Shown here: in pieces, positions 1 through 22,113 of the stretch | Layout of the letters: each line of letters starts with the position of its first letter | Position numbering within the stretch: the stretch's first letter is position 1 | Assembly (NCBI GenBank): GCA_023231475.1 | Contig: JALJEE010000232.1 | Span: 62,001-84,113 of the forward strand | DNA: 22,113 nucleotides | Direction of reading: 5' to 3' | Source: Seison nebaliae | Lineage: Eukaryota | Made by a program: the position numbers and the translations under genes | The notes under the pieces: model-generated | What the model was told of the DNA's origin: nothing | What the model saw: the letters and a program-made list of their open reading frames with translations, nothing else | Database searches by the model: none

Positions 1-3000
1 ATGTTTTCCCATCTGAACCGCAAATCGGCATATATTCCATTGTACAAACTGGTGATTTGCAATCATCTTTAACGCAAGTTTTACAACAATCTTCGGAATT
101 CTTTTTCTTTAATACATAACCAGCCATGCAGTGAGGTAGAAGACATGCATACGGATCACAGTCTAAAGAAATAATTGGTAATATGATAAATAAACCGTCA
201 TGAGACGTATTTGATGCTTATCAAAAATTATTCAAACCGCATGCTACTTCCTTGGCTACTGTGATTTCTTTTCCAGTGGTACAAGCTGCGTTATCTAGAA
301 AACATTTGTTCGAATAAGTTTTCCCATCACTACCACAAACAGGGTCGTGGATCGTCGCGCAGAGTCTCATACATAATCGAGGTTCTTTTAATAAAATCGA
401 TTAAAATATTTTTTTAAAATTAAATTCGAGAAATTGAAGAACCTTGACAAAACATCATATCCTTCAGTGTAAGGAAAGGTAATTTACATTGAGCAATCTC
501 AAACAGACATTCATTACTATAAATTTCTTTATCCGAACCACATACCGGTTTATTTATTTTAGGACATGGTTTATCACATTTTCTTTTTCTACATGATTGG
601 CAACACTCTCCTGGTGGATAATAGGGTTCAGCATCAATTTCACACATTGCCGCCACACATCTGACTACTCTACAATCCATAATGCATGTTGGACAACATT
701 GACCATTTGACGGAGGAATTGGATTTGGGCAAAAAACTTGGGCGCATTTAACAGTGTTACAATTAGTTTCCGTAGATGGACAATAAAATTTCTTTGTCTC
801 ATGATACTTCAAACAATTGCCCCTACATGAATTCTGGAGGAATAATTCAATTTATAATTATAGAATTTGAAATAAATTAACTGAGCAAATTCTCTTATTT
901 TGAAATAGTTTAACACATTTGGCATCCGGTTGTGGACATGGTGCTCGGATGCACATGATAACTTGTTGAATACAACCATAACCAAACGGACAGGATAAAG
1001 CGGCACATCCAGGTGGTAAGGTACTTGTTTCTTCTTTATGATATTGAAAATATTAATTCTTATAGAAGAAAAGAATTAACGGCATTTAGACATAGGTACT
1101 TTTTTTAATTTTTTGTTTTTGCATTTGGCATTTTTGAGGAAACAGCCATTAAAATATATTTTTCCATCATTACCACATACTTCTTTTTTTCGAGGATTAC
1201 ATGATTGCTCACAAGTTCCACCTTCCATAATTTGTCGGTTAGAAATGAAAATGGGAATTTATTTCAAAATTAATCAAATTCAATTAGACTGAAATGTTAA
1301 CTGCATGATCCTCTTCGATCAATCCAAATTCGATTTTTCGTACAACGTCGTAATTGATAGAACATACAATAATTATAATAGTTCTTACCATCTGTACCAC
1401 AAACAATTTTCTCCTTCTTCCTCGCACATTTAGCAGCGGCTGCTGAACATGATTCTACACATGTTCCATCATAATACCATATCGTCTTCTTCTTGTCACA
1501 TTCACGAGCTTGGTCAAATAGACATCTATTCGAATAAGTTCTATCACTAGCACATACCGGTTTAGCTTCGCGTGTACATTTCTTAGGACAATCGGCATCT
1601 ATAAAAAAATGTTATAATTTTCAATTTAAAATTTGGAAATCTTTTTAACTTGGACAACTTCCCAACGTTAATTCTTTGACATCACATTTGGCATTATCAA
1701 ACATACATCTGTTTCCATAAATGTTGCCGTTCGTGTCACATACCGGTCGACGTTCTTTTGTGCACACCTTCTTCTCACATGGAGGACAAGCCATTTTCGT
1801 GCACATTAACTTACCATTCGAACATGAACATGTGTTGCAATCTACTTTAATCGATCCACCATGAACTATCTCGTTTCCACCTTGTTGGCATGGTTTGTTG
1901 CCTAATTAACAAATTAACAAATTTTGAAAATTACGAAAATTTCGCCAAACCTTGACATGATCCCAATTTTAAATTTTTATTATCACATTGGGCATTTTCA
2001 AAGACACAATTATTTGAATATTGTTTACCATTCGTATCACAAACTGGTCGTAAAATTTTTGGACATGGTTTCTTACAAGGTGGACAAGCCATCATTGTAC
2101 ATCTGAGCATACCATTAGAACAAGAACATGTATTACAATCAACTTTTGTCGATCCACCATGTGGAACAATTTCATCACCATTTCTGCAGGATTTATTATC
2201 TAAAAAAATATAAAAATGATAAATGTCCAAATTCATCGAACCTCCACATACACCCAGTTTTAAATTTTTGTTGTCACATTGGGCATTTTTAAAGACACAT
2301 TCATTTGAATATTGTTTTCCATTCGTATCACAAACAGGATCAAAAACTTGGAAACATCCTGTTTTACATGGTGGGCAAGCCATCAATGTACACGCTGCCA
2401 TTCCATTCTTACAAGAACATGTATTACAATCAACTTTCGTTGATTCACCATGAGGTATTTCTTTTCCATCAATTATGCACGATTTTCCTTCTAAATTATT
2501 AATAAATATAATAATAAATATTAGTAATGAATTTGAATTAAACCACTTTGACAGAACGACATCTGTTTCACTGTCAACGATTTTTGGACACATCTTTTTT
2601 GATTGGAAAACATACAACGATTTCCGTAGATTTTTTTATCAGAACCGCAAACTGGTCGGTTAATTTTTGAACATGGTCGAAAACATCCAACTTTGCACGG
2701 TCCTTCATTAGCAAAATCGAGAGAATTATCATCACAATCTTTCTTTTTATATAACATACACAAATTGCCATACGTTTTACCATCCGATCCACAAACCGGT
2801 TTCAATTCTCTAGTGCAAGCAGCATTACAATCTATACAAATAAAAGATTCTTTTCTTTTCAATCAATATTCAAACTTGGACATGAAGGACAACATGATCC
2901 ATGACGGACGTAAGGTTGTGCATTATTAGGACAATGAGGCAAAGCACACATTTTCATTGCACATCTTATTTTACCATCAAAACATCCACAACTATTGCAA

Positions 3001-3993
3001 GGAGTATCTTGAAAAGACCATTCACCGTAACATTTCGAATTTGCGTTGCACATACCATTCTTCGCTTTCTTTTGTGATTTACAATTCATTTCACATGAGT
3101 TTCGGTAAGTGACACCATCTTTCCCACAAACTGCTTTCATCGGAAGTTTGTCACATTTAGAACAAGATTTACCGTCTAAAAATTAAAATTAAAATATGAG
3201 AATATAAAATAGATGAGGAACTGTTCTTACAGAATGTCATTGACTTTTTTGTCAATGATCGATTTCGACATTGTTTTTGATTGTCAAATAAACAATCGTT
3301 ATCGTACACTTTACCATCAGAACCACAAACCGGTTTCAGTATTTTAGTACAAGCTTTATCACATTCGTCTCGACATTGGCCATGGTGTTTAAATTCCAAT
3401 TTTCTATTGTTACAATCTCTTTCCTTATATAATAAACATAAATTGTTGTATGTTTTACCATCCGATCCACATACCGGTTTCATTTCTTTGGTACAGACAA
3501 CTTCACAATGTGGACATCCGGGACAACATTGACCTTCTTGGGTATAGGGTATATCCATATTTGGACACTGTGGCCAGTCACAGTGTATCGAATGACAAGT
3601 TAATCTGCCACTTTCACATGCACATTGTGTGCACGGCGTGACTTGATTTCGCCAAACTCCAAAACATGTTTTCGAATCACATTTGCCATCTTTCGCCTTT
3701 TTTGTTCCTTTACAATCCAACTCGCAACTAGTTCGATAAGTCACATCATCAACTCCACAAACCACCTGAGGTTTTTTAGATGAACATTCATCGATACATA
3801 AATCTTTACAAGCAATTTCTGTGCATTGTGTCAGATCTCCATTGTCACACCTACAGGTATTACAATCCACTTTGACAATTGCATTATGATCATAACGTTT
3901 ACCGTTGTAGAAACATGTATCGAATTCTAATTGGGAATAAGCGAAGACATGCAGCCAGAGAAGACTGAATGGAAATATGAGGAAAATTTTCAT
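1..3993 (-). CDS. Secreted multi-domain Cys-rich protease-inhibitor-like protein (>=15 Kazal, 4 pacifastin-like, 2 full and several partial VWC modules); 3'-truncated by the window edge
   Basis: ATG at 3993 with signal-peptide-like MKIFLIFPFSLLWLHVFA. Exons 3993-3222, 3175-2876, 2831-2544, 2490-2242, 2199-1951, 1901-1650, 1598-1302, 1221-1081, 1033-882, 833-443, 384-238 and 162-<1 join through 11 GT-AG introns into one open frame of about 1133 aa. Repeated Kazal signature C-x3-C-x7-C with (P)VCGSDGKTYxNxC, pacifastin-like DCNTCxCxNGxxxCTxxAC, and VWC CCPxC motifs. Two junctions have in-frame alternatives (acceptor 1034 vs 1031; donor 881 vs one 36 nt upstream). Confidence 0.92.
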
Positions 3994-4045
3994 TCTAGAT
4001 AAGATTGAAAGAAGGAAATATAGAAGAATTATTGTGCTCCCTTGC

Positions 4046-4052
4046 TTTTATA
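4046..4052 (-). promoter_or_regulatory. Candidate TATA box of the Kazal gene
   Basis: TATAAAA on the minus strand about 53 nt upstream of the ATG at 3993. The AT-rich background makes a chance match possible. Confidence 0.35.
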
Positions 4053-4585
4053 AGTTGCTAACTAATAGCTCAATTAATTATAAAATAAAAGGGAATTAAT
4101 GGATTTTATGTGTTAATTAACATAAGTTTTATTTAACACCTACGTAATTCATCCATTTAAACTACTTTACCATTAATACAATTGATGGCATAACTTGGTA
4201 ATTTGTTGATTTCAGCTCAATATATAGTCAATTATCAACTCCAGTCAATTTTTCAATTTATCTCGATTTTTCTAGTAAAACAAAAGTCTATTAACCAACT
4301 GGTTCGATTGAAAGAGAAAAATCTACTTTTTTCATTTTCTTTATTCGGGTATAGTTTTTATTTCTAATTTTAATTATTTCCTAACTAATTTACAGATTGT
4401 TTTAATAGGAAAGTGAGAAAAAGATCAATCAAATTCATATAAAGAAAGTCCTTCACAAAAGAATTTCATTAAGAAAAACTGGAAATTATTTAATTTCGTT
4501 AAAGAAGAGACGAGTTGTCTAATTCGTGCCAAATTTTTTTCCTAATTAAATTCCCATTGACTATTACCAATTATTTTAACTAGTT

Positions 4586-4612
4586 CAACAACAACAACAA
4601 CAACTACTACTA
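4586..4612. repeat. Compound microsatellite (CAA)6(CTA)3
   Basis: Read directly from the sequence, downstream of the eIF3h stop codon. Confidence 0.8.
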
Positions 4613-4738
4613 AATTTACAGTGAGAATTAATAGTAAATAGGAAATTGATTCGATCCATTAAAATTTTATTTTGAAAAGAAAATGGAAAGACAAAGAATA
4701 TTTCATTCATTGTCACCAATTGATAAGGATTGTGATGA

Positions 4739-6008
4739 CTAATTTGATTTTTTGACTAATCCACCAGCTCCCGCAATAAATAACTTTATTAAATTTTGAA
4801 TAACATATGACTGATATTCGTTGACACATAACTGACAAAAGAGAAAATATTATATGAATGATTGAGAGAAGAATTGAAGAACTTTCGCTTGGAATCCCAC
4901 GAATAAAATATCGAGATAACTGGCTTCGGTTGGAGCCGGAAATTCCTGATTCAATTCCTCTGTCGTTGGAATTGGTTTCAATTCTTCTCCATTATTCTCT
5001 CGAATTGCATTTTCTTGTTCCTATTTCGAAAGAAATTCGATTAATTATTTCAATTGTCAATTAGAGAATTGTTAACGATTCGTTTCAATGTATTCTGCTT
5101 TCCTGCCAATTGTTTCCTTAATTGTCGATAATAATTGAGGAATTTGTTCGTGTCTTGTGACAAGACTTCTAAAGATCCATTAAGAAATTTTGTCAATTGA
5201 TTCACCATATCACTAAAATTAAATTTCAAAATAAATTTTAAAATTAATTTTAAAATAAATTTATGAAACCCATTTGGCAATTTGAGATGTTGATAAGAAG
5301 TGAATTTTGGATTGATCGTTTTCAATTCATGAAGTGCTAACAAATTAAGTGTGGAAGTTCGATAAATGATTGGAATCTCTTTCAATAGATGATCGATATT
5401 AACGAAATATTCTTTCGTTAAACAATCGTTCAATTTTGGGAGACGTGAAGCGGTGGCGGAAGGACGATAAGCCTTCAACCATAAAGTTCCATAACTCGAT
5501 TTCGTATGATCTAGAAATGGAATAATGAATCTGGAAGAGAAAGACAATTAGAACCGTAAGTTAAAAGTATTGTCTCTGGTGTATCTCCCATCAAACCAAT
5601 CATATCATCCAACATTCTTTTATCGACTAATTTACCAAATACGACGGAAATATATCCGCCAACTCTCACATAATCGAAATTGCAATCTTTGAAACATTCC
5701 AAATAGTCGTAAATGTAATTCTCTTCGTTCGTCTCCGAAATGAGACGAGGGAAACAATGTGTCACTTCCAAATTCTTTCCAACGAGAATTCCTGTCAGAA
5801 TTCCATCAGCTTCCATTCCAGTCGGATTCATTTGTTGCTCCTTCAAATGTGATACATAACTGTTGTGGTGAAGGATACGTAACACGACCTATTAATAATC
5901 GATTGAAATTAGAAAAGAAACAATTGAACAAACTGAAGCATCGAGAATGACATTCTCCACTAAATTATCTGTATTTTCAGTTTGTTGCAAATTCGTCGAT
6001 TCACCCAT
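4739..6008 (-). CDS. EIF3H: Eukaryotic translation initiation factor 3 subunit H (non-catalytic MPN domain), 338 aa
   Basis: Exons 6008-5934, 5888-5555, 5510-5270, 5212-5077, 5020-4883 and 4831-4739 (1017 nt, TAG stop). The spliced product restores eIF3h-type motifs: VILDASVVLRILHH, GILTG...LEVTHCFP, LLTYDHTKSSYGTLWLKAYR, EIPIIYRTS, LSQDTNKFLNYYRQ, EQENAIRENNGEE and C-terminal QNLIKLFIA. Confidence 0.9.
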
Positions 6009-6463
6009 GTTGATGGTGAGAGTTGTGGTTAATTAAAACGTGTAATTTTGATGTTTGGGAAAGGCCAAACATTTAAATTGATTCCAATTCTCCAATTATT
6101 CTCTTTTAATTTTATTAGAAATTCTCATTAGAAAAATTATTATATTAATATTTACAAAATAGTATATTTCTTATTAGAATTAATTCAAATTATTTTTTTA
6201 ATATTTTTTCTAATTTATCTCGATGTGAATTTTGATAATAAATAATAATTATTATTATTATAATTAATATTATATAATAATTAATTAGTTTAACCTGTAA
6301 ATTATTTATTTATTCTGCATCAAAAATTGAGCTTTAAATTTAAAATTTCAAAAACATCAAATCTCTCATGTATCTTCATTTAATTTAGAAGTTCTATCAA
6401 TTTTCCTAATTCAAATTTGTATCTCGTTCAAATAACAACAGTCGCTACAAAACACGAGTCGAA
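6009..6463. promoter_or_regulatory. Divergent (probable bidirectional) promoter region between EIF3H and RPL37
   Basis: Only 455 nt of very AT-rich sequence separate the two oppositely oriented start codons. Confidence 0.55.
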
Positions 6464-6951
6464 ATGGTTGGTAATATTTTTTGAATGTGTTATATGGTGA
6501 ATCTTTAAAGACTAAAGGAACAACCAGTTTTGGGAAACGACATACGAAGACACATAGTCTTTGTAAAAGATGTGGTCGATCATCGTACCATTTGCAGAAG
6601 AAGCAATGTGCCTCATGTGGATATCCTCATCGTAAAATCAGAAAATGTTTCATCAAATCTTGACAAGAATCAATATATGTTTATATTCATTTAGATAATT
6701 GGAGCGAAAAAGCAATTCGCAGACATACTACTGGAACTGGACGATTACGTCATTTGAAAGTTGTTCGACGACGTTTTAAGTTCTCAATTTTTTCATAGTC
6801 TACTTTACAAATTTTTCATTTGATACTTTTTCAAAATTTCAGGAAAGGCTTCCTCGATGGACGACAATTGTTCATGAAGAAAGTGTTGTCTAAATTGGCG
6901 GAAAAGAAATCGGATAATGGAGACGACAAGACAACCGTCCTCAAATTGTAA
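6464..6951 (+). CDS. RPL37: 60S ribosomal protein L37 (eL37), 110 aa
   Basis: Exons 6464-6466 (ATG only), 6511-6646, 6695-6779 and 6843-6951. The product [40 protein letters not shown]...[29 protein letters not shown] carries the eL37 C2-C2 zinc ribbon and the TTGTGR motif. AATAAA at 6983-6988. Confidence 0.97.
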
Positions 6952-9900
6952 ACGTGTTTCCCATTGAATAGATTTTTAATTAAATAAAATTTATATGGAT
7001 ATCGATTAGGATATGACGGTTGAAGATATTAGTCATTCGTTGGAGTTATTTCTCGTTGAATTCCTCTCTAATTTTTATGATAGTGTTAATGTCTAAATGT
7101 CAGAGATAGTGTAAAATAGAATTTTAATTAATTTGAATTGAGCGAACATAATATCATAAATTTGTCATATAAGGCAATATGCAGAAGACGGAAATATTAA
7201 GAAAGTGAAAGGAGACGATCAATTGTTCTATGTAAATTGGAATATAATCGAATCAAGACGATCGTAAGAAGATTTAAGAACGATTGACTGAACTAAAGTA
7301 ACGAGTAAAGACAGAGATGGAAGGACATTGAAAATGATGAGAATTTTATAAATTATTCGACTACTTGTCCACTAATGCTTTTCATCAATTGAAACATTGC
7401 TACTCGTTCGATGGAATGTTGTGAGAGGATTTTGTAGCGAGAGATTTTTTTTATTCTCCTGTAACGGAGTGACATATATCACTTTTAATTGTATCAGGCA
7501 ATAGATGTCAAATCGATGAATGTCATCGATATCATCTTGTTTAGAATGGAAACAATTTGCTTTTGGGAGAGTGATATATGCAAATGAAGACCAGACAAAT
7601 AATTAGTTTCGGACTATTCAATTGGAGTCGAAGTATTTGGTAGGACTAATCCTCTTGTCAATCCTGGGAGAAAAGAAGATAATTAAAGATTCAATATTTT
7701 CACATAAATTCTCTCACGTGAACAAATCAGAGGAGTACAAATGAGAATTGCTGTTCACTTTAATAATAATTTATCGATCGTTCAATGTTGCTGTTGTCCC
7801 ACCCAAAGTGTCTATAATGTGGTACTAGATAGTTCAATGAGGGGGGAGAAGACTGTTCTCGCCTAATTCCATCACTTATTGCGTCATTCTCACTCATCCG
7901 AATTTTATTTATTTTCACTTAGTTCTATTGCCAATGGAGAGAATATTCCACCTAATGATCAACTTCAATTATGGGGATTGTTTATTGCTTCGTCTCTTCG
8001 TCATCATCATCATCATCCTCATCTAGAAAAATGTCCATGAAAATCTTTCTCTTCTTATTTCCACACAACACAATTTTTAATGTGTTAGGAATAACGATTC
8101 TTTTAATTTAGGATATATGTCTCACTTTATTCTCTCCACACTCTACATAACGACATGAGATCTTAACAATCTGCTAAATTATTTAAATTTGGAAGAAGAG
8201 AAGTAGTAGATATCTCCGCCAGTCATCCAATAGTAGTTGACTCTTTCATCTTATGGAGAGGATACATGTTTCATAAACTCTTAATGAATCTACCAGTCAG
8301 TATGTTTGGAGTCGACAAACGCAATCGTTATTCTTCCGATAACATAGCTTTGGGCAGCAATCTTCACCAGTAATCTCCAACAGTTTCCGATATGTAATAA
8401 GAAATTCTATTAAATTAAATTTGTATTTATTTACCTAAAACTTGTTGGAGTGTGGGAGGGGAGGATGTTGAGGAATTACGTCTTCTCGTTAGTAGTGGAT
8501 GGAAGGAGAATCGATTTGTTACGTTAAAGGTGGGAATTTCCCATATTCTCCACTTAACGTCCAAATTTAATATAAACAGTTATGTATTGTTTAAGTAAGA
8601 CAAAAAGCTCTATTTGAAGTTATAAGATACAACTGAAGTACAGATAAACTACTTTCAACTCCGATCCATATTTATTTTGCATTTCACAGACAAATCATAA
8701 AAAATGATAGCAGCTGCATAGCCATGGAACATCATTTATTTTTCATGATGACGATAATTGAAGAATAATGCGTTTAACTAAAACAATACGGCGATAAACA
8801 ACGTTATTAGTAGTAAGGTACATAAATGTATGAACTAATGATAAAATAAACTCATTAATAGAAATTCATGGGAATCGGCAGATATCTCTTATGTGAGAAG
8901 GAAATAAACATAGATATTATTTAACGAAATTCCCTCTGTTAATTACGTAACATAGATCGGCAAACTAATTTTTTTATGTTCTTTCCACAATTTCTCCTCC
9001 ATTACTACTACCGCGTTGCATTTACGACTGGATGAGAATAGAATTTCCCCTTCAAAACAGCTCAAATAAGTCAAATTTAGATATATGAATTTTTCAACTA
9101 ACTTATACAATTTGGAAGGTTATCGATTTGTCCTATACACAAAACTACTTAATACATTTGATATTTATAAAGAGGTTAGTTCGCATTCGTATGTCAAGTA
9201 CCAGGTTCATGTCAATGGATGATGGAATATATTGCCAAATGAAATTCAAAATTTTTCCTCTCAATGGAATTATATTCATTCATCGATTATATGTATATCT
9301 TTGTCTTGTGCTCAAAAAAAAATTCCCTACAATTTTCTTTTCTGCTCAATTATTCGAATTAACAATATTAAGTTAACAGGTGGATCTGCTAACTGTTTGA
9401 TCGTTCATCTACATCGCCATCTGCCTAAGAGATGTTATTTAATCAAATGAGTCGTGTGAATGAGAAGAAATATAAAGTAAAGTTAATCGGTAAATTATGA
9501 AAAAAAGATTTACATTCTCATTTCTCATTTCCGCTAAAGATTTTTGACGTTCGTACTGAACTGTAAGTTCAATGTCTTTCCAAAAATTTCCTCTTTTATG
9601 TTTGACTAGTTAATTGGGTTTGTGACGTGAATTCGACAGGTTTCTTTTAATTGTGACGACTTTATTCAATTCGATCAATTAAGTACTGGTATTAAAGATT
9701 TGTCACGTTATCATTTGGATATTTAGATACCATTGATATGTTACTATTAAGGCTACATCATAAGAATGTAGTAGTGCAACTGATAATTCTGGTAAGTGAA
9801 AGAATCAGTAAAGAATAGTTGTTAAATGATAAGTTTTGTTCTTCGAGGAATAATTGGTATATAAGGGAAGAATCAGTGAATAGGAATGATTAGAGAATGT

Positions 9901-10428
9901 AATGGAAGAAATTATTATGTAAAGTAATATTAATATTAGTTTGACATTATACGTCGTTTATATGGTTGCCTAAACATTATTTATTGATACATTGGTAGGA
10001 CGAAGGAAAAATGAATCTGAAATAATTAAACACCTTCCCATCAATATGCTTCTTTTACTTAAGTTGAATTATATATTGATGGACTAATGTGTACATTAAA
10101 TAATAATTGGATGTCAAAAAGATGCTGGAGGGAGGACCAGCAAAAAAGATATTATTCAAAAAATTATAATTACATACAACATATTAATACGTGCATTTAC
10201 ATAATTGAGCTCCGATGATTTTAAGGAATCATTAAGTTACAAATAAACCAGTTTGCTGGTTTCTCCAAATTGTAATTGATCAGTATTTCCCTCAATTCCT
10301 CCAAATTCTCTCCAACAATTATTTGAGTGACTAAGAAAATGTTTGATAAATTTCAAATGAGTTTTTTATAATTTCTCACATTACCCAACGAAAGATATGT
10401 TTTAGGAAATTATTGTGGGAGAAGCTTT

Positions 10429-13044
10429 ATGAAACTTCCAGATAATGGGACAATGGTGTCGGACGAACCATTATATCCAAAATTGCGAGCTGTGTCCATC
10501 CTCCTCCGAATTTACATACCGCCCTTTGTCATTGTTATCGGATGTATATGCAACATTTTAACGTTCATTATTATGCGACGTCGTCGTCTCCGTACATCCT
10601 CCACTTGTTTCTATATGGCTGTTTTGGCCATCGCTGATACGAGTGCACTAATCATCGGTTATCTTCAATTTTGGATATATCAAGCATTTGCATGGACACC
10701 ACTTTTGGTCTCAGATTTTGCGTGTAAAAGTTCCACATTCGCATTAATCACTTCATCGCATTATGCCGTTTGGTTGATTGTGGCGATGACGATCGAACGA
10801 TTTATTGCGGTGTCTTATCCTCTCAAATCAATGATTTTCTGCACAGTCCGTCGTGCTAAGATCGTTTGTGTTATGATTCTCTTGTTATGTATCATCATCA
10901 ATAGTCATTATTTCTTCACTAATCAATTACAACAAACGGTGATCAATTTGAAAACGAATGAATCGATTTTGGATTGTGGATTCAAACTCAAATATAAATA
11001 TTTCAATCAAAATATTTGGGTGCATATCGATGCCGTTATTTATTCATACGCTCCATGGACGATTGTTGTCATCTTCAATTTATTAATTGTCTCCTCACTC
11101 ATTCGTGCTAATCGAATGCAACAAGGATTAATTAATCGACAAGATGATCGAAGAGCAACTGCTTCTTCTTTATTTGAAGTCAATCAAATCGAACGACCAC
11201 TTATCAATGAAAGTAAGCGTATGTCATTGAATGATGCTATCACTAATAGATGTTCGAAGAGTATTCAAATTACATTACATAGTGCGCCAAACTCTCCCGA
11301 GATTGATAGACAAAAGAACTCCATCAAAATCAACATTGTTCAACAACCGTATGATAAGAAGAAAGTGACCGATCCTCAAACAAAAGAGAAACAACGATTA
11401 ACTGCCATGCTTCTCATTGTTTCGTTGTCATTCATTATTTGTACATTGCCCATCGTACTAGGACAAATTTCATGGAAGGGAGAAATGCAAAATGCCAAAT
11501 CAGAGTTCGTACAAGCCATTGGCACCTTATTCCAATATGTCAATCATTCAATTAACTTCTTTTTATACGCATTCATCGGCATCGTATTTCGACAACAACT
11601 CAAAATTCTATTCAAGGAAAATATCTTCTATCGATGCATCCAACATACGAAGCATTATATCGCTCGTAGTAATGGAGAATTAATTAAGCAAAAAAGCATT
11701 AAATCTCGCATTAGATCATCAAACAATTACCAATCTCACAAATTGTCCAACATACCATCTAATACCAGTGTACCCCAAATAAACTCGAAAATTGCCACAA
11801 AATATACGAAAAATAATGATGAGAATAAGCCTAACGAAAACTATAAAACTGACTTACCAATAGCTGATACTACATTTACGAAAAGGAACATCAAAGCAAT
11901 TGGAATGGAGAATGAAATTAATTCAAAACAAAAGAAATTAGAAGCGGATCATTTGGAAAATGATAATTTGATAGAAGAAAGTTCTAAAACTGATCATCCC
12001 GAAAGCCAACGAGACTTGGTGAGAGAAATTTCGAAGAATGACAAATTGAATGTGGAGAAATTGGAGGAAGAAGATGGAGATGCGAGAAAGAAAATTTTGG
12101 AGATCGAAAACTTACAAAGAGATCAAATAGACGAGAAGAATATAGAGAGAAATAATTTAGAAAAAGAAGAATTTGAAAAGAATATCATTTGGCTGAAACG
12201 ATTCGATGAAATACATCGAACACATTCAGTGCCCAATTTCTATTCGAGTTACATCGAAGATGATACTCTTGAAATTAATGAGATTAAAGAAACGAATCAT
12301 ATAGAGACAGATCGATGTAAGAAGACGCCTGATGTAACTCAATCAATGTTTACTGATGGAATGTGCAGAGAGTGTTATAAGAAGATTACAAAGATTCCTT
12401 TCGATACCAATAGATTATTTTACAGCGATGATCTAATCAGTTATTATTCAATCTCTCATTTGAATGTGACAAGTAGTGACACTAATCGAATTACAACGAC
12501 TATAAACGAATATTATGATGATACTCCACCAACTAGCGCAGTAGAATTGAAGAAAAGAAAGCGATTTTTTCGTAGAAAAGCAAAACCGAAACAGAAAATG
12601 AATTACGATATTAATCAACAATCAATCAACAATTGTATTTTCGAGCAAAGTTTATTCAATTCAATTTCGTCGACAACTGTTACATCTGATGTAACGGAAG
12701 GTGAACACGCTACCCCCAAACCAATTAGTGCGTATGATAATCATCCAAAATTAATTCTCAATTTCCAAGAGAGTTATTACGATAATAATAATTTTAATAT
12801 TAATAATAAATCGAATAATAATAATAATAATAATAATAATACCTCTAAAACTGTCACGAAGAATGAAGCAGATCAAACCTTGCCAACTAGTTTAGTTGAA
12901 GAGCCAAACAAATCGTTGTCACAATCAAAGCTTTCCATAGAAACGTCGAAGAATAATGAGAATGATGAGCCTTTGAGAAATATGCTAATATCTGCCGGAA
13001 AGATTATGGATCAAATACGTGAAAATAGTGGAACATTGGTTTGA
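10429..13044 (+). CDS. Class A (rhodopsin-like) peptide GPCR, FMRFamide-receptor-like group, with long ICL3 and a ~480-aa C-terminal tail
   Basis: 871-aa ORF with seven hydrophobic segments: TM1 GCICNILT, TM2 LAIAD, TM3 MTIERFIAVSYPL, TM5 YAPW, TM6 FIICTLP, TM7 NHSINFFLY. The ERF and NFFLY variants are typical of invertebrate FMRFamide-R-like receptors. A possible acceptor (ttttag, ending 10405) with open frame up to the ATG means an upstream exon cannot be excluded. Confidence 0.88.
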   Translation: MKLPDNGTMVSDEPLYPKLRAVSILLRIYIPPFVIVIGCICNILTFIIMRRRRLRTSSTCFYMAVLAIADTSALIIGYLQFWIYQAFAWTPLLVSDFACKSSTFALITSSHYAVWLIVAMTIERFIAVSYPLKSMIFCTVRRAKIVCVMILLLCIIINSHYFFTNQLQQTVINLKTNESILDCGFKLKYKYFNQNIWVHIDAVIYSYAPWTIVVIFNLLIVSSLIRANRMQQGLINRQDDRRATASSLFEVNQIERPLINESKRMSLNDAITNRCSKSIQITLHSAPNSPEIDRQKNSIKINIVQQPYDKKKVTDPQTKEKQRLTAMLLIVSLSFIICTLPIVLGQISWKGEMQNAKSEFVQAIGTLFQYVNHSINFFLYAFIGIVFRQQLKILFKENIFYRCIQHTKHYIARSNGELIKQKSIKSRIRSSNNYQSHKLSNIPSNTSVPQINSKIATKYTKNNDENKPNENYKTDLPIADTTFTKRNIKAIGMENEINSKQKKLEADHLENDNLIEESSKTDHPESQRDLVREISKNDKLNVEKLEEEDGDARKKILEIENLQRDQIDEKNIERNNLEKEEFEKNIIWLKRFDEIHRTHSVPNFYSSYIEDDTLEINEIKETNHIETDRCKKTPDVTQSMFTDGMCRECYKKITKIPFDTNRLFYSDDLISYYSISHLNVTSSDTNRITTTINEYYDDTPPTSAVELKKRKRFFRRKAKPKQKMNYDINQQSINNCIFEQSLFNSISSTTVTSDVTEGEHATPKPISAYDNHPKLILNFQESYYDNNNFNINNKSNNNNNNNNNTSKTVTKNEADQTLPTSLVEEPNKSLSQSKLSIETSKNNENDEPLRNMLISAGKIMDQIRENSGTLV
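12814..12840 (+). repeat. (AAT)9 coding microsatellite giving poly-Asn in the GPCR tail
   Basis: Nine perfect AAT units, preceded by a degenerate Asn-rich stretch from 12781. Confidence 0.9.
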
Positions 13045-15519
13045 GTAGGAAATGAAATGGAATTTAAGGATATGACAACAATTGCCAAATGGAACAAATC
13101 GTCGACGATTAAACTTAACGAAAACGATTTCTTCTAATCGAATTTATTTATTACAATTTCACCTTCTCCTTCTCATCACTTTCTTTTTCATTCACAATTC
13201 TCCAACTCCAAGTTTACTTTATCGATTGATTTATAAAATTTCATCTCAATTATCACTCTACAATTATATAAAACTCTCGTTTTACTAAACTTATTTGGTA
13301 TAAGTAGGTAGAAGTTGATATGTTTTGTCCAAACACTTTATGACTTGCTGTCCATCATCGATTCGTTCATATTAGGTAAATTAATAAAAGAAATCTCCAA
13401 AAACTTATTGACGTTACTCGTCGAAGAACTTTCAAGAGTAACCGATTCCGATGAGTGGAATATAAAATACTAGTAGTAGTTGTTGATTTGAATTGGAAAA
13501 TTATTAGGAAGAAATTCAATTCGTTTTTCTTCCAAGAATTTTTTCGGAATGAAAAATAGTTTGAGAAGATATGACCGTAAGTGATAATAAAGTTAAATTT
13601 TTTACTTCTTTGTAATAAAACAATAATTATTCCAATATAATTCCAGTATAATTCGATAAGTCTAACTTACAAAAACAAAAAATTTATTATTTATTCAATA
13701 TGGAACTCATAAAAATAAATTGAGTGATAGAAAGATCTCGAATATCTTTCCATTGTAATCGATTTATTTTATTACTCCAACATTTACTATTATACATTTA
13801 CGAGGGGGGAGACCTCAATCGGTAACATTAGTAAGTCAGATGGGAATCGATTGAGGAAATACTAGTGGAAATGTTTGTGTATTAAAATAAAAAGAAGGAA
13901 CAGTCAATAGGTATGACATGAATCGTGAATAAAATAGTGGGGATTAATAAAGTTCAAGTAATTATATATAATTTCTCTCCCAATGTATAATTATTCCAAT
14001 AAAATTATAGCAAAGAGAAATAAAGTAGGAATGTATTGTAGAATTCGGCGTAAGAGTGACTTGCTCTCATCTAATTCGACGAATTGTTATTATTTCTTCT
14101 TTATTCTTTAGTTCTCTCTTATGGAAATTCTCTTGAAGTTTCGTTCAACATCTTTCCCTCAATTGTAGATGAGAGAAATAATGGAAAATAATTCGATAAA
14201 CAAACAGGCTAGTAAAGTTAAGAAGTACGAGAGAATTGACAAAATTTCTTTATTTTCCAATCGAACCAATTGAGACATTGAAGATCGGGGAGAAAAAGTT
14301 CTATGCAAACTTGAATTATAATTATTCCGATGAATGTTTCGAGGTCGATCGATGAATTGCTTATTTGGAAATTTCATTTATTCATCGAACCACCTCTGAC
14401 TCGCTAGTTAGAACGACAGTTGCCCCCCAAAAGAACATTACGTATAATTTTTGTAAATTTCATTTTCTCGCTAGAATTATTCCGCACTTTATTTCCATTC
14501 CCAATCAGTCATCTGATGCATCGATATATAAGTGGTTTATGTTTTCCTCTCTCATATGACATCAATACATGTCAATTTATCACGTAGATACGCAATGAGG
14601 AATCATATACATTCTCGCATAATTATATTACGTGTCTAATTCATCCACCATAATCATCTCGTCATTCCTTTCTCTACTATTATTATTCTCTGTTTTCCTC
14701 AAATAATCATCTCAACTCAAATACTACGATTCATTTATGAATTTCATACTACTACTACTTATGTACTACAAAGAATTCTAACAATTATTTAATGTGATTC
14801 AATTTATTTGTAATTATTATTTTAATTGTAAGAATTATTTACTATTATTGAAAGTAAAATCGATGGTAATATATAATGAATAGGAAATAATTATATTTTG
14901 GAATTTTCTGTTAGAAAATTTATAATTTTTGAAAAATTGTCATATTTGAGATAAATTAAGTTACAATGAATTAATATCAGAAGTTATTTCGGTCTCTTGT
15001 TTATTATGATTATTATTCTTATCGAGTCAGATTCCATCATCGAAATAATGTGAATTTAATGAGACATTCTTCAGTTAAACGTTATGTGAACTAATCATTC
15101 AGAGATTAAGAAGGAAATCACATCTTAATATTATTCTGTAGAAGCAACATGATAATATTCTTCCTAATAGGCCACTTATGACGAATAATCGAATAAGACA
15201 TCTACTAGAAATATTCTATAGTTCATCTTCCAGAAAAAAAGAGTAATTTTAGAAATCTTATTTATTTTCATGTCGAATTACCCTAATGAAATTTAATAGT
15301 TCTCACAATATTCATCAGTATGATGTTATCATGTTCATTTTCTTCTTCCGCATCAAATTCATATTCAACTCCATCTCATTTGAATATAAAAGAAAAAGAA
15401 AATCAACAAAAGGAAAATTTATAAATTCGATTCCAATTTACATCTTCATTTTTCATTCCATTCTCTATCGATACCACCATTAGACGGATGATGATATGAG
15501 TTGATTTATGTGATAAAAA

Positions 15520-17396
15520 ATGACGGTGAAGTTTCTTCACATACCTGAAACATTATTACATTGTTGTTTATGCCAAAGTATTCTGGAAGATCCTCGAGTT
15601 CTACCATGTGGTCATATGATATGCAATACGGTTTAATTTTATTCCTTTAATTTTTAATCTAATTCTTCCCTCTCAATAAGCACATTAACCAATTAAAGAA
15701 TGCTGAACAATCAAAATTGAAAGATTCGTTCGATATTCATGATGATCAATATGAATTATTGAGATCGAGAATATCGGAAATCATTTTGGATTTCAGTAGT
15801 GAATTATCTCCCAACTGTCCTCCACCAACCGACTTAACGAGAAATCGAACATTCCGTTGTCCATTATGTCGAACAATCATAAGCGATGTCAATTCATCAT
15901 CTTCCATCATTACTCCTTATCAAGTGAAAGATATTGCCGATTATTGCCTCCATTCACAGAAGAATCATGATGAAAATAAATTATCTGGTTTGATGATAGA
16001 AATCAATAATTTATTGAATCAAAATTGTTTAATATTTCAGTTGTTGCAATTTTATTAAATTCTCTTCTTTCAGATTCGAATTTCCGGAAAGCATTCAATT
16101 CTTTCCCTAACAACTATTCGTCAATGGATGTGAAAGATTCGATGAGAAATGTGAAACAACAATTCCGTCTTTTATACGCATTGTCCATCAAACTGTTTCA
16201 CTTTTATCAATTAATTTCAACATTCAATTAATTTATTATTATTATTATATTTTGAAATGGATTAATTAGAATTGATCATATTAAACAGAAATTGAATCGA
16301 CTGAAAAAGAAATATCCTCATATCGATTGGACTTTCAAGACAACCCAAACTTTTAGGACGGCTGAAGAATGTTCATTTCTTTTGCAACGAATCGAATCGC
16401 TGTCAAAAAAAGTTTCGGTGAAGAAACTATATTTAATTCACGAACTCGTCAATGGACTAGTTAATTTTAATTGAATTCTTTATATTTAGTTATCATCAAA
16501 TTCAGCCGATTATTATTGAAGTTTTAGAAAAAAGAAAATTGAGTTCGGCTAAAGCGGAACAATTATCTCAAAATATTTTATCACAAATGGAAAATTTATT
16601 AAGACGTCTAATTGGAAATGCTACATTAACATCAACTGACCCTAATCGAACAAAGTTCAACATCGACGGCAATCCAATGAAATTTTCATTCGAATCTTTC
16701 CAAAAATCACACAACGAACTAGAGAACTCAATCGGAACATTCAAAAATGCTCCAAAACTTACCGCTAATTCACCTTATAAATCCGTGGCAATTTCATCGA
16801 TTGATTCTCATAAGAAATTAAAAAATTTGAAAGGTAATCGAGAAAAAAATCAGAATGAGAATCTCAAACAGAAATATCAGAAAAGAAAAACATTTGAGAA
16901 ACGCATAAAAGCAAAAAGCAAAACGGTTTTCGATTATATTTATGAAAACATGATACTTAAAGATCGACCCTTAAATTTTTTGGGTTATCCGAAAACTGAT
17001 AATTTTACTCTTAAACAAATTTTGATCGAGAATAATATCAGATTACTGATGGAATTCGAGAGGAGAACGATAATACTCAAATGTATTGAAGAAGATAAGA
17101 ATTGCAATTTGGAGCAATGTTCAAAGATTTTGGAGAAATTGTTAAATTTCTTAGAAGGAAATATTGTGACGAAAGACATTAGGACGAAAATCGAAGAATA
17201 TGATTCTTTTAGATTATTTTGCAATAAATATTTCGTTTCCTACAAGTTATTGGAGAATGGTGATAATTCAACATTGACAATTCAAATAATTGGAGAAGAA
17301 AACAAATTACGGCGACTGAAGAATAAGTTTGACAATGAACATCCTCCATGTATATCTAAATATCAACAACGCCGTTACCATAGAAATCGTGTGTAA
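15520..17396 (+). CDS. N-terminal RING-finger protein, putative E3 ubiquitin ligase, ~552 aa
   Basis: ATG at 15520 with an in-frame TAA just upstream. Exons 15520-15630, 15681-16026, 16074-16194, 16270-16459 and 16506-17396 join four ORF-track fragments in frame. RING ligands CCLC-x11-CGH-x2-C-x2-H-x58-CPLC, with the DPRVLPCGH motif. The fourth junction is the least certain. AATAAA at 17514-17519. Confidence 0.78.
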
Positions 17397-17743
17397 GATA
17401 TTCATAAGAAACGTATGACCTTCCATGAAATTTTACATTTTCCATTAACATTTTGTAAGTAATTATTCGAAATGGTTTATTTCGTTCCACATTCTTTGTT
17501 TTCAGCAGATTAGAATAAACTTTAATAATAATCAAAATTTAATTTTCTCCTAAGAACATCTTTTATCAATGCTCTTAATTTCTTTTCTCAATAGCATTTT
17601 TTTCAAATTAGGTAATAAATTATTAGTCCACTTTTCATAACCAGTACTAATATTAAGATGATCAATTCATATTCTGTAAAAATACGATTATTTCTCTCAT
17701 AATCGAAGATTTATTAGAGAAATTAGAATCTAAATGAAAATTG

Positions 17744-19454
17744 TCAATTTTTCCATGTATATTTTGCTTGCATTTCCGAAATGGGATCGGAAAACCGTTT
17801 TGGAGGAAGGGCATTAACATATTGCTTAACAGCGGGATGTTTATCTAAATCAGGCTTCTTAAACGATTCATTAGTAGTAGTTGAATAATATAATGCTGAA
17901 AATGAAATATAATTAATGAAGAACTACAAAAATTAAACATACGAACTACCACAGTCATCATGACCAGCCATGGTTTTGTGAGAATTTTTCACTAATTTCG
18001 GAATGTATTTTGGATGAATGGGTTGGTAAGTCAGACTCTGAACAGTGAGGAATTCATTCGGTTCATTTTCTCCCCGTAGATAACCAGCTGATTCTCTCAC
18101 CGTTAATTCTTCTTCCTCAAATGGTTTTGGCTATATGAAATATAGTTGTTTTGAATAAAAAATAATTAAGGACTTGGTATTGTGCGGCATATTCCGACGC
18201 ATTCTTTTCCTCAATGTTGTAAGGGAAGACGGCGGAATTATTTAAGTCCATTCTTATAGGATCAGGTCGTTTACCTAATTTCGGTCTGTTACAAATAAAT
18301 TAATTAGGAAAGACAAAAAATATCAACTTAAATTTGTCGATCGTTTCTGAAATGAATTGATTTGGTTGAGGACTACCTTCACGGAAATTATCAGTTTTAT
18401 AATCCGTCATTGGAAATCTATTCGCTTCCAATGCATCTTTCAATGAAACTTTCTTATACGAATGTTGTGTCTCTGTCTGAAGAAGCCGTAAGCTTATAAG
18501 AAAATAATATTTTTTAAGAACTTCGGGTGATCCCATTCCATAATTGAGAGGAAATCCATTGAACGGTATTATTCTGGGTTTCATTTTGGGCAGATGTTCC
18601 AAACTATGATCAACATAAGCACTCTGATAATTGGACTCGACCGGATCATCGTACTCCTTATTTTTCAGTTCCAAACTTTTTTTCACCAATTCTATTGAAA
18701 TTACTTAAAAATTTTAAAGTAAAAACTATGTTAACGATTCAAATTAGCGTCATATGTTTCTAGAGGAGTGTAATCCGAATTGTAAATTGACGAAGTTGGT
18801 TTTTTGGGGAGTCTCGCTAGGATGTCCGAATCATTGACGGGAAAAATTGGTTCAACTTTATCGATAGGGCGACTAGTATATTTTTCCGTGTACTCGGAAC
18901 TGAAAACTTTGTCGTCCGGAAATGTTTTACGATATAATTCAGAATGGCGATTTTTTTCACAGTTGTCCATTAAAGGCAATCTTTCTAATAAATCCTTCGG
19001 CATTTGCCGTTCTTCAATCTGATTGTCGTATATATTATAAAACTTTTTCGGTTCAGCATCGGCCTGACGAGCTATTTTTTCATTAATAATAGGTGTGTAT
19101 TTTTGTAAAGAACGCTGATACCATTCATCTTTAACCTTTCCAGTATAATAATCTTGGTAACGGTATGGTTTTTGATTATTTTCGCAGTGCTACAACAAAG
19201 TAGGAGAATTATAAATAGAATAATTTGATATAGATGAATAATGAGGAGATAAGAGAATCGGGTATAAAACAATCGATGAGAGAGAATCATGACGTATCAG
19301 AAAAACAATCAGCAATAAGATATTTCAGGTGTGACATATCATCACATTTTGATTAAATTTTAAATGAAATAACAGTGAACTAAACTATTGGTTTTTCTAA
19401 AGGATAGCGGATATAGCCATGACGATATTCGGTAAGCATGTTAGAATTGTTCAT
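17744..19454 (-). CDS. Mn-motif repeat protein, SAXO/FAM154-like axonemal microtubule inner protein, ~429 aa
   Basis: Exons 19454-19386, 19189-18736, 18691-18522, 18476-18328, 18285-18174, 18130-17947 and 17895-17744 (1290 nt, TGA stop). About ten [TS]-x-[YTQM]-x3-[YF] motifs separated by Pro-rich linkers: TEYRHGY, SEYTEKY, SIYNSDY, SNYQSAY, TETQHSY, SETIDKF, SEYAAQY, TVQSLTY, TTTNESF, SEMQAKY. The gene model is solid; the family call rests on motif resemblance only. Confidence 0.65.
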
Positions 19455-19930
19455 TTTAAACAATGTAGAACTGAACTTAAATAATGATGCTGGATAATTG
19501 AAATTTTATTAAAAAAATATTTGGTTTATCGTCAGATGTTCATTGTCAAGTTGTCAAATTGTTAACAATACGAAAACTTTTATAAATTTCCTATTAATTA
19601 AACTTAATTTCAATTTCAATTTTATTCTTCTAAATCTTTTCCAAACATCTTCAATTCTCTAATTGCCATTTAACAAACATAAGTATTAATGAGTATTAGG
19701 TTATATATTTTTTTATACTTTGTAATTAATTAACTGTTTGAATTAAATTACCATATGATGCATGTACGTATATCATCATGATATATACATAATAATACAT
19801 AAGTTTTTTAAAATTTTCAACATAAAATTCAACCTCTATATTCAATTTACTTTTAATTTGTTTTATTTCATTTTTTAACTAATATAGTTCAAGCTATTTC
19901 GATATTTAATTATTCTCAAATCAATTAACA

Positions 19931-21863
19931 ATGATCAATCCTTCAATGTTCATCAATAGTAAGAATAGCTTAAAGGTTGTTAGAGATCCATATGATAAGC
20001 CTGCAAATATTTTAGATATTGACGGTAATTGCTTATCCATTACTACTTTACAAATAATAATGACATCTCCTTCGTTAATGTTGTTATTTTATCAACATAA
20101 TTATTGCACCGCATTAACTTGTCTGCAAGTGCGACATAATATTGTAGAAAATAAACGAGGTAAATGTAAGTTAATAAAAGATATTGAATATTCATATTTG
20201 ATACATGAAGTGATGGTTATGATGGGTTTCCGGGCATCAGAAAAGGAGAAAAAAGGATTTTCATGTAACGAACATCCTTCATCTACCGGTTGTCACACTC
20301 CCAAGAATTGTCCTGATATTACAAACGGTAGTGTGGTGTTAAAGAATCTATGTCGCTTATATACTATGAGAGAAAATGAGGAGATTGCTAATGCAGAGCA
20401 TCAAGTATTTTCGAGAGTGCATTCCCAAAAATTATTACCGATAATTAATGTAAGAAAGATAAGACAAAATTTCTTGAATTACACCGATAATAAGGTAAAG
20501 AATCTGAAATTAAATGATGATAATGTCAGAAAAGGATTATCTTATTTCCCTACTAATGTGTTATGGAAAACGATCAACAATTACGAATATGATAAACGAG
20601 GATTGACTTCAGCAGTAATGACGCAACTTGCATACAAGTATTTAAATGTGCGATTTAAGACAATTTTAATATTTTTGATGAATATTCTTTTTGTCGAACA
20701 TGGTGGTACTCGTCAAAATGAAACTGTTGCTCATACATTTTATAAGACAACTCCATTGACACGTTTCTTTCAGGGTGAAGTAAAAGAATTGATATATAAA
20801 ACTCTTTGGCCTTTGTGGGACGAAATAACTACTGACCATGTTACACATTTCCCTCATTTAAGAATAATCTATCTGAAACTGACTCAAAAAATAGATAAAA
20901 AAGAAATTAACGGGACATTAAATAATTATCCATTTTGTTGGTATCAAACTTGGGAAGACGATATTTTTGATTTAGCCGAAGAATGGTTGCCAAAAAGAAC
21001 TTCCGATTTGATTGGTAGATATGGTCTACCATCAACTGTGTTCATTGATTTTGATTAACTTAATCACTCAATATATCAAAGTTTGGCTCTGCAAATATCG
21101 AGCCGTACTCTTTTCTCTTTAATTGATTTCGTCAAAGAATCACTTCAAGAGGTTGAAGGTCAAATACAGTTCGTTCCTAATCGAACAATGGTACATATGA
21201 CTTATCAGAAAGTTGTTCTTATTTTTCCCGACGAATTTTGGTGTGGCGATATACCCTGTAAGAGGAAGTTATTTATAAACCAATTGAGTGGTTCCGAGAA
21301 ACAAGAAGAGTTCGAAGTATTTGCAATAACTTTTAAACAACTGGTTATGCATTATAGAATCTCAGTAACTTTGGACACTTTGATAATAAACAATGTGTCT
21401 TACGAAGAATATAAATTGGAACGTACAAGAAAAATGTTTGACTGGCTGATGGAACTTCCAAAAATGAAGGATATTGTAGTTAAGCTTAATAAAGATATTA
21501 TGGCACACCTTACTTCAGAAGTTCAGAAGTATATTGATATTTTGGTTTTTAAAGAAACTATTCATAATTTATGGAAATTGAGGCAAACTAAAAATGGACA
21601 GAATTTCCCAGTACGGACAGTACGAAGAGCCGGGTGATTCATCAGTATTGGTGCGAACCTTCAATTTAAATTGGTGGTACATCAATAACGATAAAGTAGA
21701 AAAGGTTGAAAATCCAAAGATTTTTTTGAATAATTTTGTAGTAAAAATTAGCATGGACACTTGGCAAACCGCTTGGCAACTAGTTAGAACTTCTCATAAT
21801 ACCTTAAAAGATCTAAGAGCAGTTATACATCCGATAACTGAAAAAGACTTGTTTAATTCATAA
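19931..21863 (+). CDS. Uncharacterised protein, probably one spliced gene (~607 aa) with degenerate ubiquitin-specific protease (USP/C19)-like Cys and His boxes
   Basis: Three consecutive ORFs join via introns 21040-21081 (GTTCAT..AAG, phase 2) and 21545-21611 (GTTTTT..CCCAG, phase 0; less certain). N-terminal DGNCLSITTLQIIMTSPSL resembles the USP Cys box. C-terminal YGQYEEPGDSSVLVRTFNLNWWYINNDKVEKV resembles the His box. Coding status is well supported; the family call is tentative. Confidence 0.5.
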
Positions 21864-21917
21864 ATTAATTTTAATTTGTTCTTCTGTTTGTAAGTTTTCT
21901 TTTTTCACGAACAAACC

Positions 21918-21948
21918 GGCGTGCGTAGCGCAGTGGTCTACGCACGTT
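21918..21948. other. GC-rich hairpin containing a Pol III A-box-like motif
   Basis: CGTGCGTAG (21920-21928) is the exact reverse complement of CTACGCACG (21938-21946), with a 9-nt loop. TAGCGCAGTGG (21926-21936) fits TRGCNNARYGG. Confidence 0.55.
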
Positions 21949-22113
21949 CCACGCATATTTGCGAAATAACGTACTAGTGATGTCCATTTGGTAACAAAAA
22001 CGAAGAGCTCAAAAACGATTTTATAGAGGAAGAGAAAAAAATCCAGACTCTCGTTTTTGCCTCGTATACATACACTATTCGTTCTATTTTGGCAAAAAAC
22101 AGAACGAACAGTA

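Follow-up and report, generated by a model that had tools for sequence, protein, structure and literature searches.

Few splicing signals are as well conserved as the purine at position +3 of the 5' splice site (donor). The documented case of U at this position is Entamoeba, where the atypical donor GUUUGU(U), of which 88-90% are GUUUGU, goes with a co-evolved U1 small nuclear RNA (snRNA) carrying ACAAAC (Roy and Bowser, 10.1101/2022.06.08.495308). Cyanidioschyzon merolae splices 38 introns without U1 using a heavily reduced spliceosome (PMC10158995), and a review divides donors into two classes, NN//GURAG, led by U6, and AG//GUNNN, led by U5 (Parker et al., PMC11732430). We analyzed a 22,113-nucleotide (nt) stretch of the genome of the marine rotifer Seison nebaliae (Seisonidea; contig JALJEE010000232.1; GC content ∼31%), hereafter the window, in which 28 of the 29 introns found in five genes begin with GTT, one with GTC, and none with GTA or GTG.

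Measured against the major (U2-type) class, all 29 Seison introns are GT-AG, 21 are removed in RNA-derived transcripts, and their 3' ends are pyrimidine rich, while the canonical donor GTRAGT with its +3 purine is found in 0/29, as is GURAG. This failed test lowers the case for a canonical donor, not that for splicing by the major spliceosome, and the donors act like those of major-class short introns. The resemblance to Entamoeba, a near-universal U at +3 in major-spliceosome GT-AG introns, is confined to +3: Entamoeba, a protist, has few introns and a strict hexamer, whereas Seison is an animal with about six introns per spliced gene here, in which only the GTT is fixed. An Entamoeba-type strict hexamer was rejected, with GTTTGT in 1/29. 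Three Seison donors fall into the AG//GUNNN class, none into NN//GURAG, and 26/29 into neither, as is also true of 32 of 47 donors from bdelloid-like loci. With C. merolae the shared feature is that donor recognition is possible without canonical U1 pairing (PMC10158995). U12-type introns were rejected as well (RTATCC donor, 0/29; CTTAAC branch site, 0/29). Shifted-register donors of the Roca and Krainer type, GTT-N-N-GT, reportedly start with GTT and require +6G together with +7T; these were rejected, with G at +6 in 2/29 and both bases in 1/29.

The introns were placed by six-frame reading and frame tests, which gave five spliced genes: the 5' part of a Kazal/vWC multidomain protease-inhibitor-like gene (1..3993, minus strand, continuing beyond the window; 11 introns, all GTT), eIF3h (4740..6008, minus strand, 338 amino acids; 5 introns, all GTT), eL37 (RPL37; 6464..6951, plus strand, 110 amino acids; 3 introns, all GTT), a RING-finger gene model (15520..17396, plus strand, a 552-amino-acid open frame; 4 introns, all GTT), and a repeat-protein gene (17744..19454, minus strand, a 429-amino-acid open frame; 6 introns, 5 GTT and 1 GTC). 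The general claim rests on this sample of five genes in one window. Deposited proteins, which may come from gene prediction, reproduce 19/19 introns by exact spliced alignment (Kazal 11/11, eL37 3/3, eIF3h 5/5), and each alignment yields a single GT-AG placement. Additional file 2 of the Seison genome paper (PMC8351084) contains GMAP alignments of Trinity transcripts from S. nebaliae mRNA sequencing. The rows TRINITY_GG_2686_c0, 2687_c0, and 2688_c0 fit the exon and intron lengths of the window at one constant offset and, among the rows listed, place 21 of the 29 donors exactly where predicted (20 GTT and 1 GTC), comprising 10/11 in the Kazal gene, 5/5 in eIF3h, and 6/6 in the repeat-protein gene. 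Among the same rows there is none for the three eL37 and four RING introns, and the Kazal intron at 2491-2543 is unbridged; the RING introns are the only four placed from frame alone.

A first-pass annotation of this DNA had listed the same 28 GTT donors and a single exception, and all 29 of its hexamers are found in the sequence. Its eight conserved-protein junctions, those of eIF3h and eL37, are placed identically by the deposited proteins, the five in eIF3h also by RNA. It had named the use of nearby GTA or GTG donors in RNA as an outcome that would refute its reading, and such donors account for 0/21 of those confirmed by RNA among the rows listed. Contigs over window positions 1-5200 are DNA-like and patchy, with no intron joints, and give no evidence either way. 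A crude gene finder blind to +3 called 18 introns in the window (15 GTT, 2 GTA, and 1 GTC); several introns were missed or misplaced, both GTA calls conflict with RNA or sit in an unspliced last open reading frame, and these calls were not counted.

The restriction to pyrimidine at +3 (T 28, C 1), also as first annotated, is far from what composition would give. GTT makes up 38.1% of all GTN in the window, and the chance of 28/29 GTT is 3e-11 at that share and 6e-8 at 50%; the transcript-confirmed 20/21 gives 6e-8 and 1e-5 when the share is set to 38.1% and 50.6%, respectively. The GTT share has a 95% interval of 82-100%. GTC donors, at 1/29, lie below the intronic C:T expectation (p = 0.018). 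Beyond +3 the donors are loose, with 18 distinct hexamers among the 29 and positions +4 to +8 nearly uninformative (+4, T11/C9/A7/G2; +5, A12/G7/T6/C4; U at +6 in 12/29), except for a mild enrichment of +5G (7/29, the count first reported, versus 6.3% intronic G; p = 0.002). Nor is the last exonic base fixed as G, again as first noted (A14/G9/C3/T3), and exonic AG precedes only 3/29 donors. The introns are short (median 48 nt, range 42-196), 25/29 being 42-63 nt with YAG/AAG ends, and they are 50.6% T and ∼80% AT. Their acceptors are TAG in 16, CAG in 8, and AAG in 5, with a T-rich stretch at −12 to −4. No branch-point motif is apparent in the 29 introns: the top 5-mers are AT runs, and CTRAY occurs in 5/29 (two introns with uncorrected acceptors). 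Separately, over the five genes taken together, C is enriched at +4 (9/29 versus 11.8% intronic C; p = 0.005, uncorrected), forming a GTTCT-like subgroup.

Sites that could have been used and were not tell the same story. We took as decoys the 31 unused GT sites lying 40-80 nt upstream of RNA-confirmed acceptors, leaving out the 196-nt intron. The +3 base is C14/T6/G6/A5 at these decoys and T19/C1 at the 20 used donors (Fisher p = 6e-8). In the Kazal gene, an in-frame GTAAGA lies 9 nt upstream of the GTTCCT donor of a 46-nt intron (3176..3221, minus strand; protein and RNA, D46), 55 nt from the acceptor, and is skipped; near the GTTCGT donor of a 51-nt intron in the repeat-protein gene (17896..17946, minus strand; RNA, D51), in-frame GTAGTT and GTGGTA and an out-of-frame GTATGT are all skipped. 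Pairing to U1 was scored over the nine positions −3 to +6 against the canonical U1-complementary 9-mer consensus. Mean matches to canonical U1 are 3.72 of 9 for used donors and 3.65 for decoys (p = 0.39), compared with 5.38 for bdelloid-like donors, and seven unused decoys, the GTAAGA among them, outmatch the used donor. Scored against a U1 variant reading U at +3, the used donors reach 4.69 versus 3.68 for decoys (p = 3e-4), a gain that is not independent because it derives directly from the +3 count. With +3U far above composition, usable purine sites skipped, and canonical U1 pairing no better at donors than at decoys, the data support a donor preference that has changed, not decayed.

For comparison with relatives, a scan with bdelloid eL37 gave 72 loci, of which 15 at 85-94% identity were taken as bdelloid-like; the metagenome loci L006, L007, L010, and L014 were assigned to bdelloids by 90-92% eL37 identity to Adineta and Rotaria proteins. 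Syntenic bdelloid-like pairs were annotated with a comparative aligner blind to +3, and the calls, made from sequence alone, include orthologous pairs. From 109 distinct calls we kept 47 on the sense strand that had a GT donor and a length of 44-80 nt and whose splice sites aligned with GT/GC (donor) and AG (acceptor) in the partner locus. These introns share with Seison the GT-AG ends, a median of about 50 nt, a T-rich interior, loose positions +4 to +6, and a weak +5G. They differ at +3, where 36 are GTA, 9 GTT, and 2 GTG; locus L007 alone has 18 GTA and 3 GTT (p = 1e-7 versus the RNA-confirmed Seison set). Exonic AG precedes 7/9 of the bdelloid-like GTT donors but only 5/38 of the GTR donors (p = 4e-4). 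A bdelloid-like GTT thus behaves as a mismatch needing compensation, whereas the Seison GTT, in a set with no GTA donors and no such compensation, behaves as the matched state, since exonic AG is so rare there.

The first-pass annotation had proposed a re-wired donor-recognition system and comparison with related taxa. The changed preference at +3 holds up in that comparison; the weak +5G that it counted as part of the novelty does not, bdelloid-like donors being similarly loose there (G in 18/47 versus 7/29; p = 0.22). Because the loose tail from +4 to +6 is common to both, the switch from A to U at +3 is probably the new feature and the loose tail older.

The eL37 introns allow a wider comparison, for which 32 of the 72 loci were used. 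We excluded seven first-intron calls (2 GTA, 1 GTG, 1 GTC, and 3 GTT) because their exon lacks a terminal ATG. In other eukaryotes the intron after the ATG begins with GTA or GTG in 9/9 loci whose exon ends in ATG, and the intron at codon 46, corresponding to 6647..6694 in Seison, does so in 19/20. Since these positions are shared with other eukaryotes, the Seison eL37 donors would appear to belong to old introns that were converted, not to new insertions. The bdelloid-like eL37 matches (L001-L015) run continuously across the positions of Seison introns 2 and 3, which suggests that bdelloids have lost both introns. In two bdelloid-like contigs (L007, 6227-7788; L006, 1711-3255, minus strand), eL37 adjoins a gene that has spliceosomal introns and encodes what resembles a bacterial-type xylose isomerase. 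Horizontal transfers are known in bdelloids, and a xylose isomerase-like gene would fit among them.

With 28/29 donors GTT and none GTA or GTG, the splicing machinery of Seison likely reads intron starts by an altered rule. We consider it probable that the 5' splice-site code has been rewritten genome-wide, such that the donor has contracted to GUU, a +3 purine is no longer accepted, and the reader has changed too. That reader would be either a base-switched U1 or a protein that replaces U1 pairing, and the change would extend to tens of thousands of introns and postdate the split from bdelloids. Our leading candidate for the reader, held tentatively and at somewhat less than an even chance, is a U1 with A opposite +3, acting together with intron definition across about 50 nt. 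In such a model, the major (U2-type) spliceosome would define each intron across roughly that distance, with the acceptor side setting a search window and U1 picking the GT within it; much of the other specificity needed would likely come from intron length, which is short and falls in a narrow range. In the common ancestor with bdelloids, the donor may already have shrunk to GT and a +3 base (GTA). On the branch to Seison after that split, as the comparison with bdelloid-like loci would place it, ACUUAC in the stretch of U1 that recognizes the donor would have become ACUAAC or ACAAAC. U would thereby have replaced A as the favored +3 base, with the new GTT donors arising through T-rich mutation.

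We favor this U1 switch because +3 is the position still conserved in bdelloid-like donors, because GTT needs exonic compensation in those loci and not in Seison, and because Entamoeba gives a precedent; an A opposite +3 in the reader also fits better than a G, given the under-representation of GTC. Rfam searches returned no match and no snRNA gene in the 22,113-nt window, and a single small nucleolar RNA in 14 bdelloid-like loci. Several observations weigh against a switched U1. Even a U1 variant matched to +3U would form a weak helix, pairing at only about 4.7 of 9 positions. The co-evolved U1 of Entamoeba goes with a strict hexamer, whereas Seison has 18 hexamers among 29 donors, and most lineages with atypical donors retain a canonical U1 (10.1101/2022.06.08.495308). 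U5 and U6, not U1, have been argued to make the final donor selection (PMC11732430), and pairing with U5 could account for the compensating exonic AG in bdelloids. The Seison sample is five genes from one window, the 47 bdelloid-like calls kept of 109 derive from sequence and contain orthologous pairs, and before filtering, the 90 sense-strand bdelloid-like calls comprise 45 GTA and 28 GTT, many of them clearly spurious.

The low pairing potential also underlies the next candidate, in which U1 is canonical or minor and a protein reads +3U, whether a diverged U1-C, LUC7, or a U-rich binder of the TIA-1/Nam8 type, in combination with length-based intron definition; a B-complex factor (SNRNP27K or Prp8) is an alternative candidate for the same role. 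We regard this second-ranked reading as unlikely. Whatever U1 is assumed, pairing stays very low (3.7-4.8 of 9), intron interiors are 51% T, and the retention of canonical U1 in most atypical-donor lineages, together with the highly diverged U1-C of Entamoeba, fits a protein (10.1101/2022.06.08.495308). However, a near-absolute flip from A to U at a single position is most simply one complementary base, and a general U-rich binder would fail to single out +3, since U occupies +4 in only 11/29.

A decision made by U6 is less likely again. Here, G44 of an unchanged ACAGAGA would wobble with +3U, or a U6 variant would carry A, and U1 would be weak or lost as in Cyanidioschyzon. G44 does face +3 and interacts only weakly with A or G there (PMC11732430), the sole exceptional donor, GTC, is still a pyrimidine, +5G is weakly enriched as described above, and the loss of U1 has occurred in C. 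merolae (PMC10158995). But selection by U6 should keep +5G and +6U strong, which the observed 7/29 and 12/29 do not bear out, and a G reader should favor C, which is instead under-represented. The C. merolae precedent, moreover, has 38 introns and reduced machinery, and the same source describes no reduced spliceosome among animals (PMC10158995).

Improbable in our judgment is an unchanged machinery, with donors decayed under AT-rich mutation or the pattern local to the window. The introns are indeed about 80% AT, bdelloid-like donors are also loose (GTT in 9/47), and only five neighboring genes were sampled; decay nevertheless predicts about 38-51% GTT plus many GTA, a poor match to the observed donors (p at most 6e-8), the genes are unrelated, occur on either strand, and count two housekeeping genes among them, and canonical sites at usable distance are skipped. 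That the donors are misplaced and nearby GTA or GTG sites are the real ones is very improbable indeed: 7/29 introns have a frame-compatible GTA or GTG within 24 nt, RING is placed by frame, and the deposited proteins may be predictions, but RNA-derived intron lengths exclude the alternative in four of the seven and deposited proteins in the other three, and the remaining 22/29 have no such site.

The individual placements are as follows. In the Kazal gene, 1133 amino acids match the deposited protein P0056 (1819 amino acids) exactly, with Pfam matches to Kazal_1/2, Pacifastin, and VWC. Besides the GTTCCT intron already described, protein and RNA agree on introns at 2832..2875 (44 nt, GTTTGA), 2200..2241 (42 nt, GTTCGA), 1902..1950 (49 nt, GTTTGG), 1599..1649 (51 nt, GTTAAA), 1222..1301 (80 nt, GTTAAC), 1034..1080 (47 nt, GTTAAT; isoforms D47 and D50), 834..881 (48 nt, GTTAAT), 385..442 (58 nt, GTTCTT), and 163..237 (75 nt, GTTTGA), all on the minus strand. 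The intron at 2491..2543 (minus strand, 53 nt, GTTTAA) is placed by protein only and has an in-frame GTG alternative 3 nt upstream. At 1031-1034 (minus strand), two AAG acceptors lie in tandem at a spacing of 3 nt, and transcripts use either one, giving introns of 47 and 50 nt.

The eIF3h protein is an exact match to P0109, with Pfam eIF3h_C and JAB domains, and its introns, all on the minus strand and all supported by protein and RNA, lie at 5889..5933 (45 nt, GTTTGT), 5511..5554 (44 nt, GTTCTA), 5213..5269 (57 nt, GTTTCA), 5021..5076 (56 nt, GTTAAC), and 4832..4882 (51 nt, GTTCTT). Spliced eL37 equals the whole 110-amino-acid protein SNEBB_001450 of Seison nebaliae (P0001), with the second exon 100% identical; its plus-strand introns, placed by protein, are at 6467..6510 (44 nt, GTTGGT, directly after the ATG), 6647..6694 (48 nt, GTTTCA), and 6780..6842 (63 nt, GTTCTC).

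The RING gene model has a weak Pfam RING match in exon 1 (E about 0.001). Its plus-strand introns are forced by frame: at 15631..15680 (50 nt, GTTTAA) the donor is the sole compatible one within 24 nt, at 16027..16073 (47 nt, GTTTAA) it is again the sole compatible donor, and at 16195..16269 (75 nt, GTTTCA) and 16460..16505 (46 nt, GTTAAT) the single alternative is GTC. For the repeat-protein gene, the RNA rows fit all six introns; in addition to the GTTCGT intron above, these are at 19190..19385 (196 nt, GTTTAG), 18692..18735 (44 nt, GTTAAC), 18477..18521 (45 nt, GTTCTT, in frame and without a stop), 18286..18327 (42 nt, GTTGAT), and 18131..18173 (43 nt, GTCCTT, the sole non-GTT donor), all on the minus strand. 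The "SAXO-like" label first given to this gene is unconfirmed, as two of its exons were tested against Pfam and gave no match.

Two further features of the window are intronless. A rhodopsin-family G-protein-coupled receptor of 871 amino acids (10429-13044, plus strand; Pfam 7tm_1) carries a low-complexity C-terminal tail that, at about 480 amino acids, is unusually long. At 19910-21637 (plus strand), two long frames in the same phase are split by one stop (TAA, 21056-21058) and have no Pfam match; for the first, a feature search gave RAG1/transposase-like clusters at 0.90-0.92 with a low recognition score. They are possibly a decayed Transib/RAG1-type transposase, which we offer only as a lead. 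The region 19400-22113 shows no convincing terminal inverted repeats, and a short GC-rich stretch at 21915-21975 lies where an AT-rich region ends, directly past these frames.

Literature searches that did not cover the annotation paper of Hagemann et al. (Hydrobiologia), a source that may bear on novelty, returned no report of GTT donors for Seison, rotifers, or other animals. The parts of the Seison genome paper (PMC8351084) covered here use "intron" twice and snRNA never and do not discuss splice sites, PMC12256650 has no match for splic, intron, or snRNA, and PMC10639083 does not mention Seison. Whereas the documented +3U case (10.1101/2022.06.08.495308) concerns a protist with few introns and a strict donor, Seison is an intron-rich animal with a bare GTT. 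It thereby offers a natural experiment on whether U1, U6, or a protein sets the donor preference. For Seison, bdelloids, monogononts, and acanthocephalans, genome and RNA data are publicly available. Splice-site models and gene finders trained on other animals are expected to misplace Seison donors. More broadly, Seison bears on how a signal common to many thousands of introns can flip.

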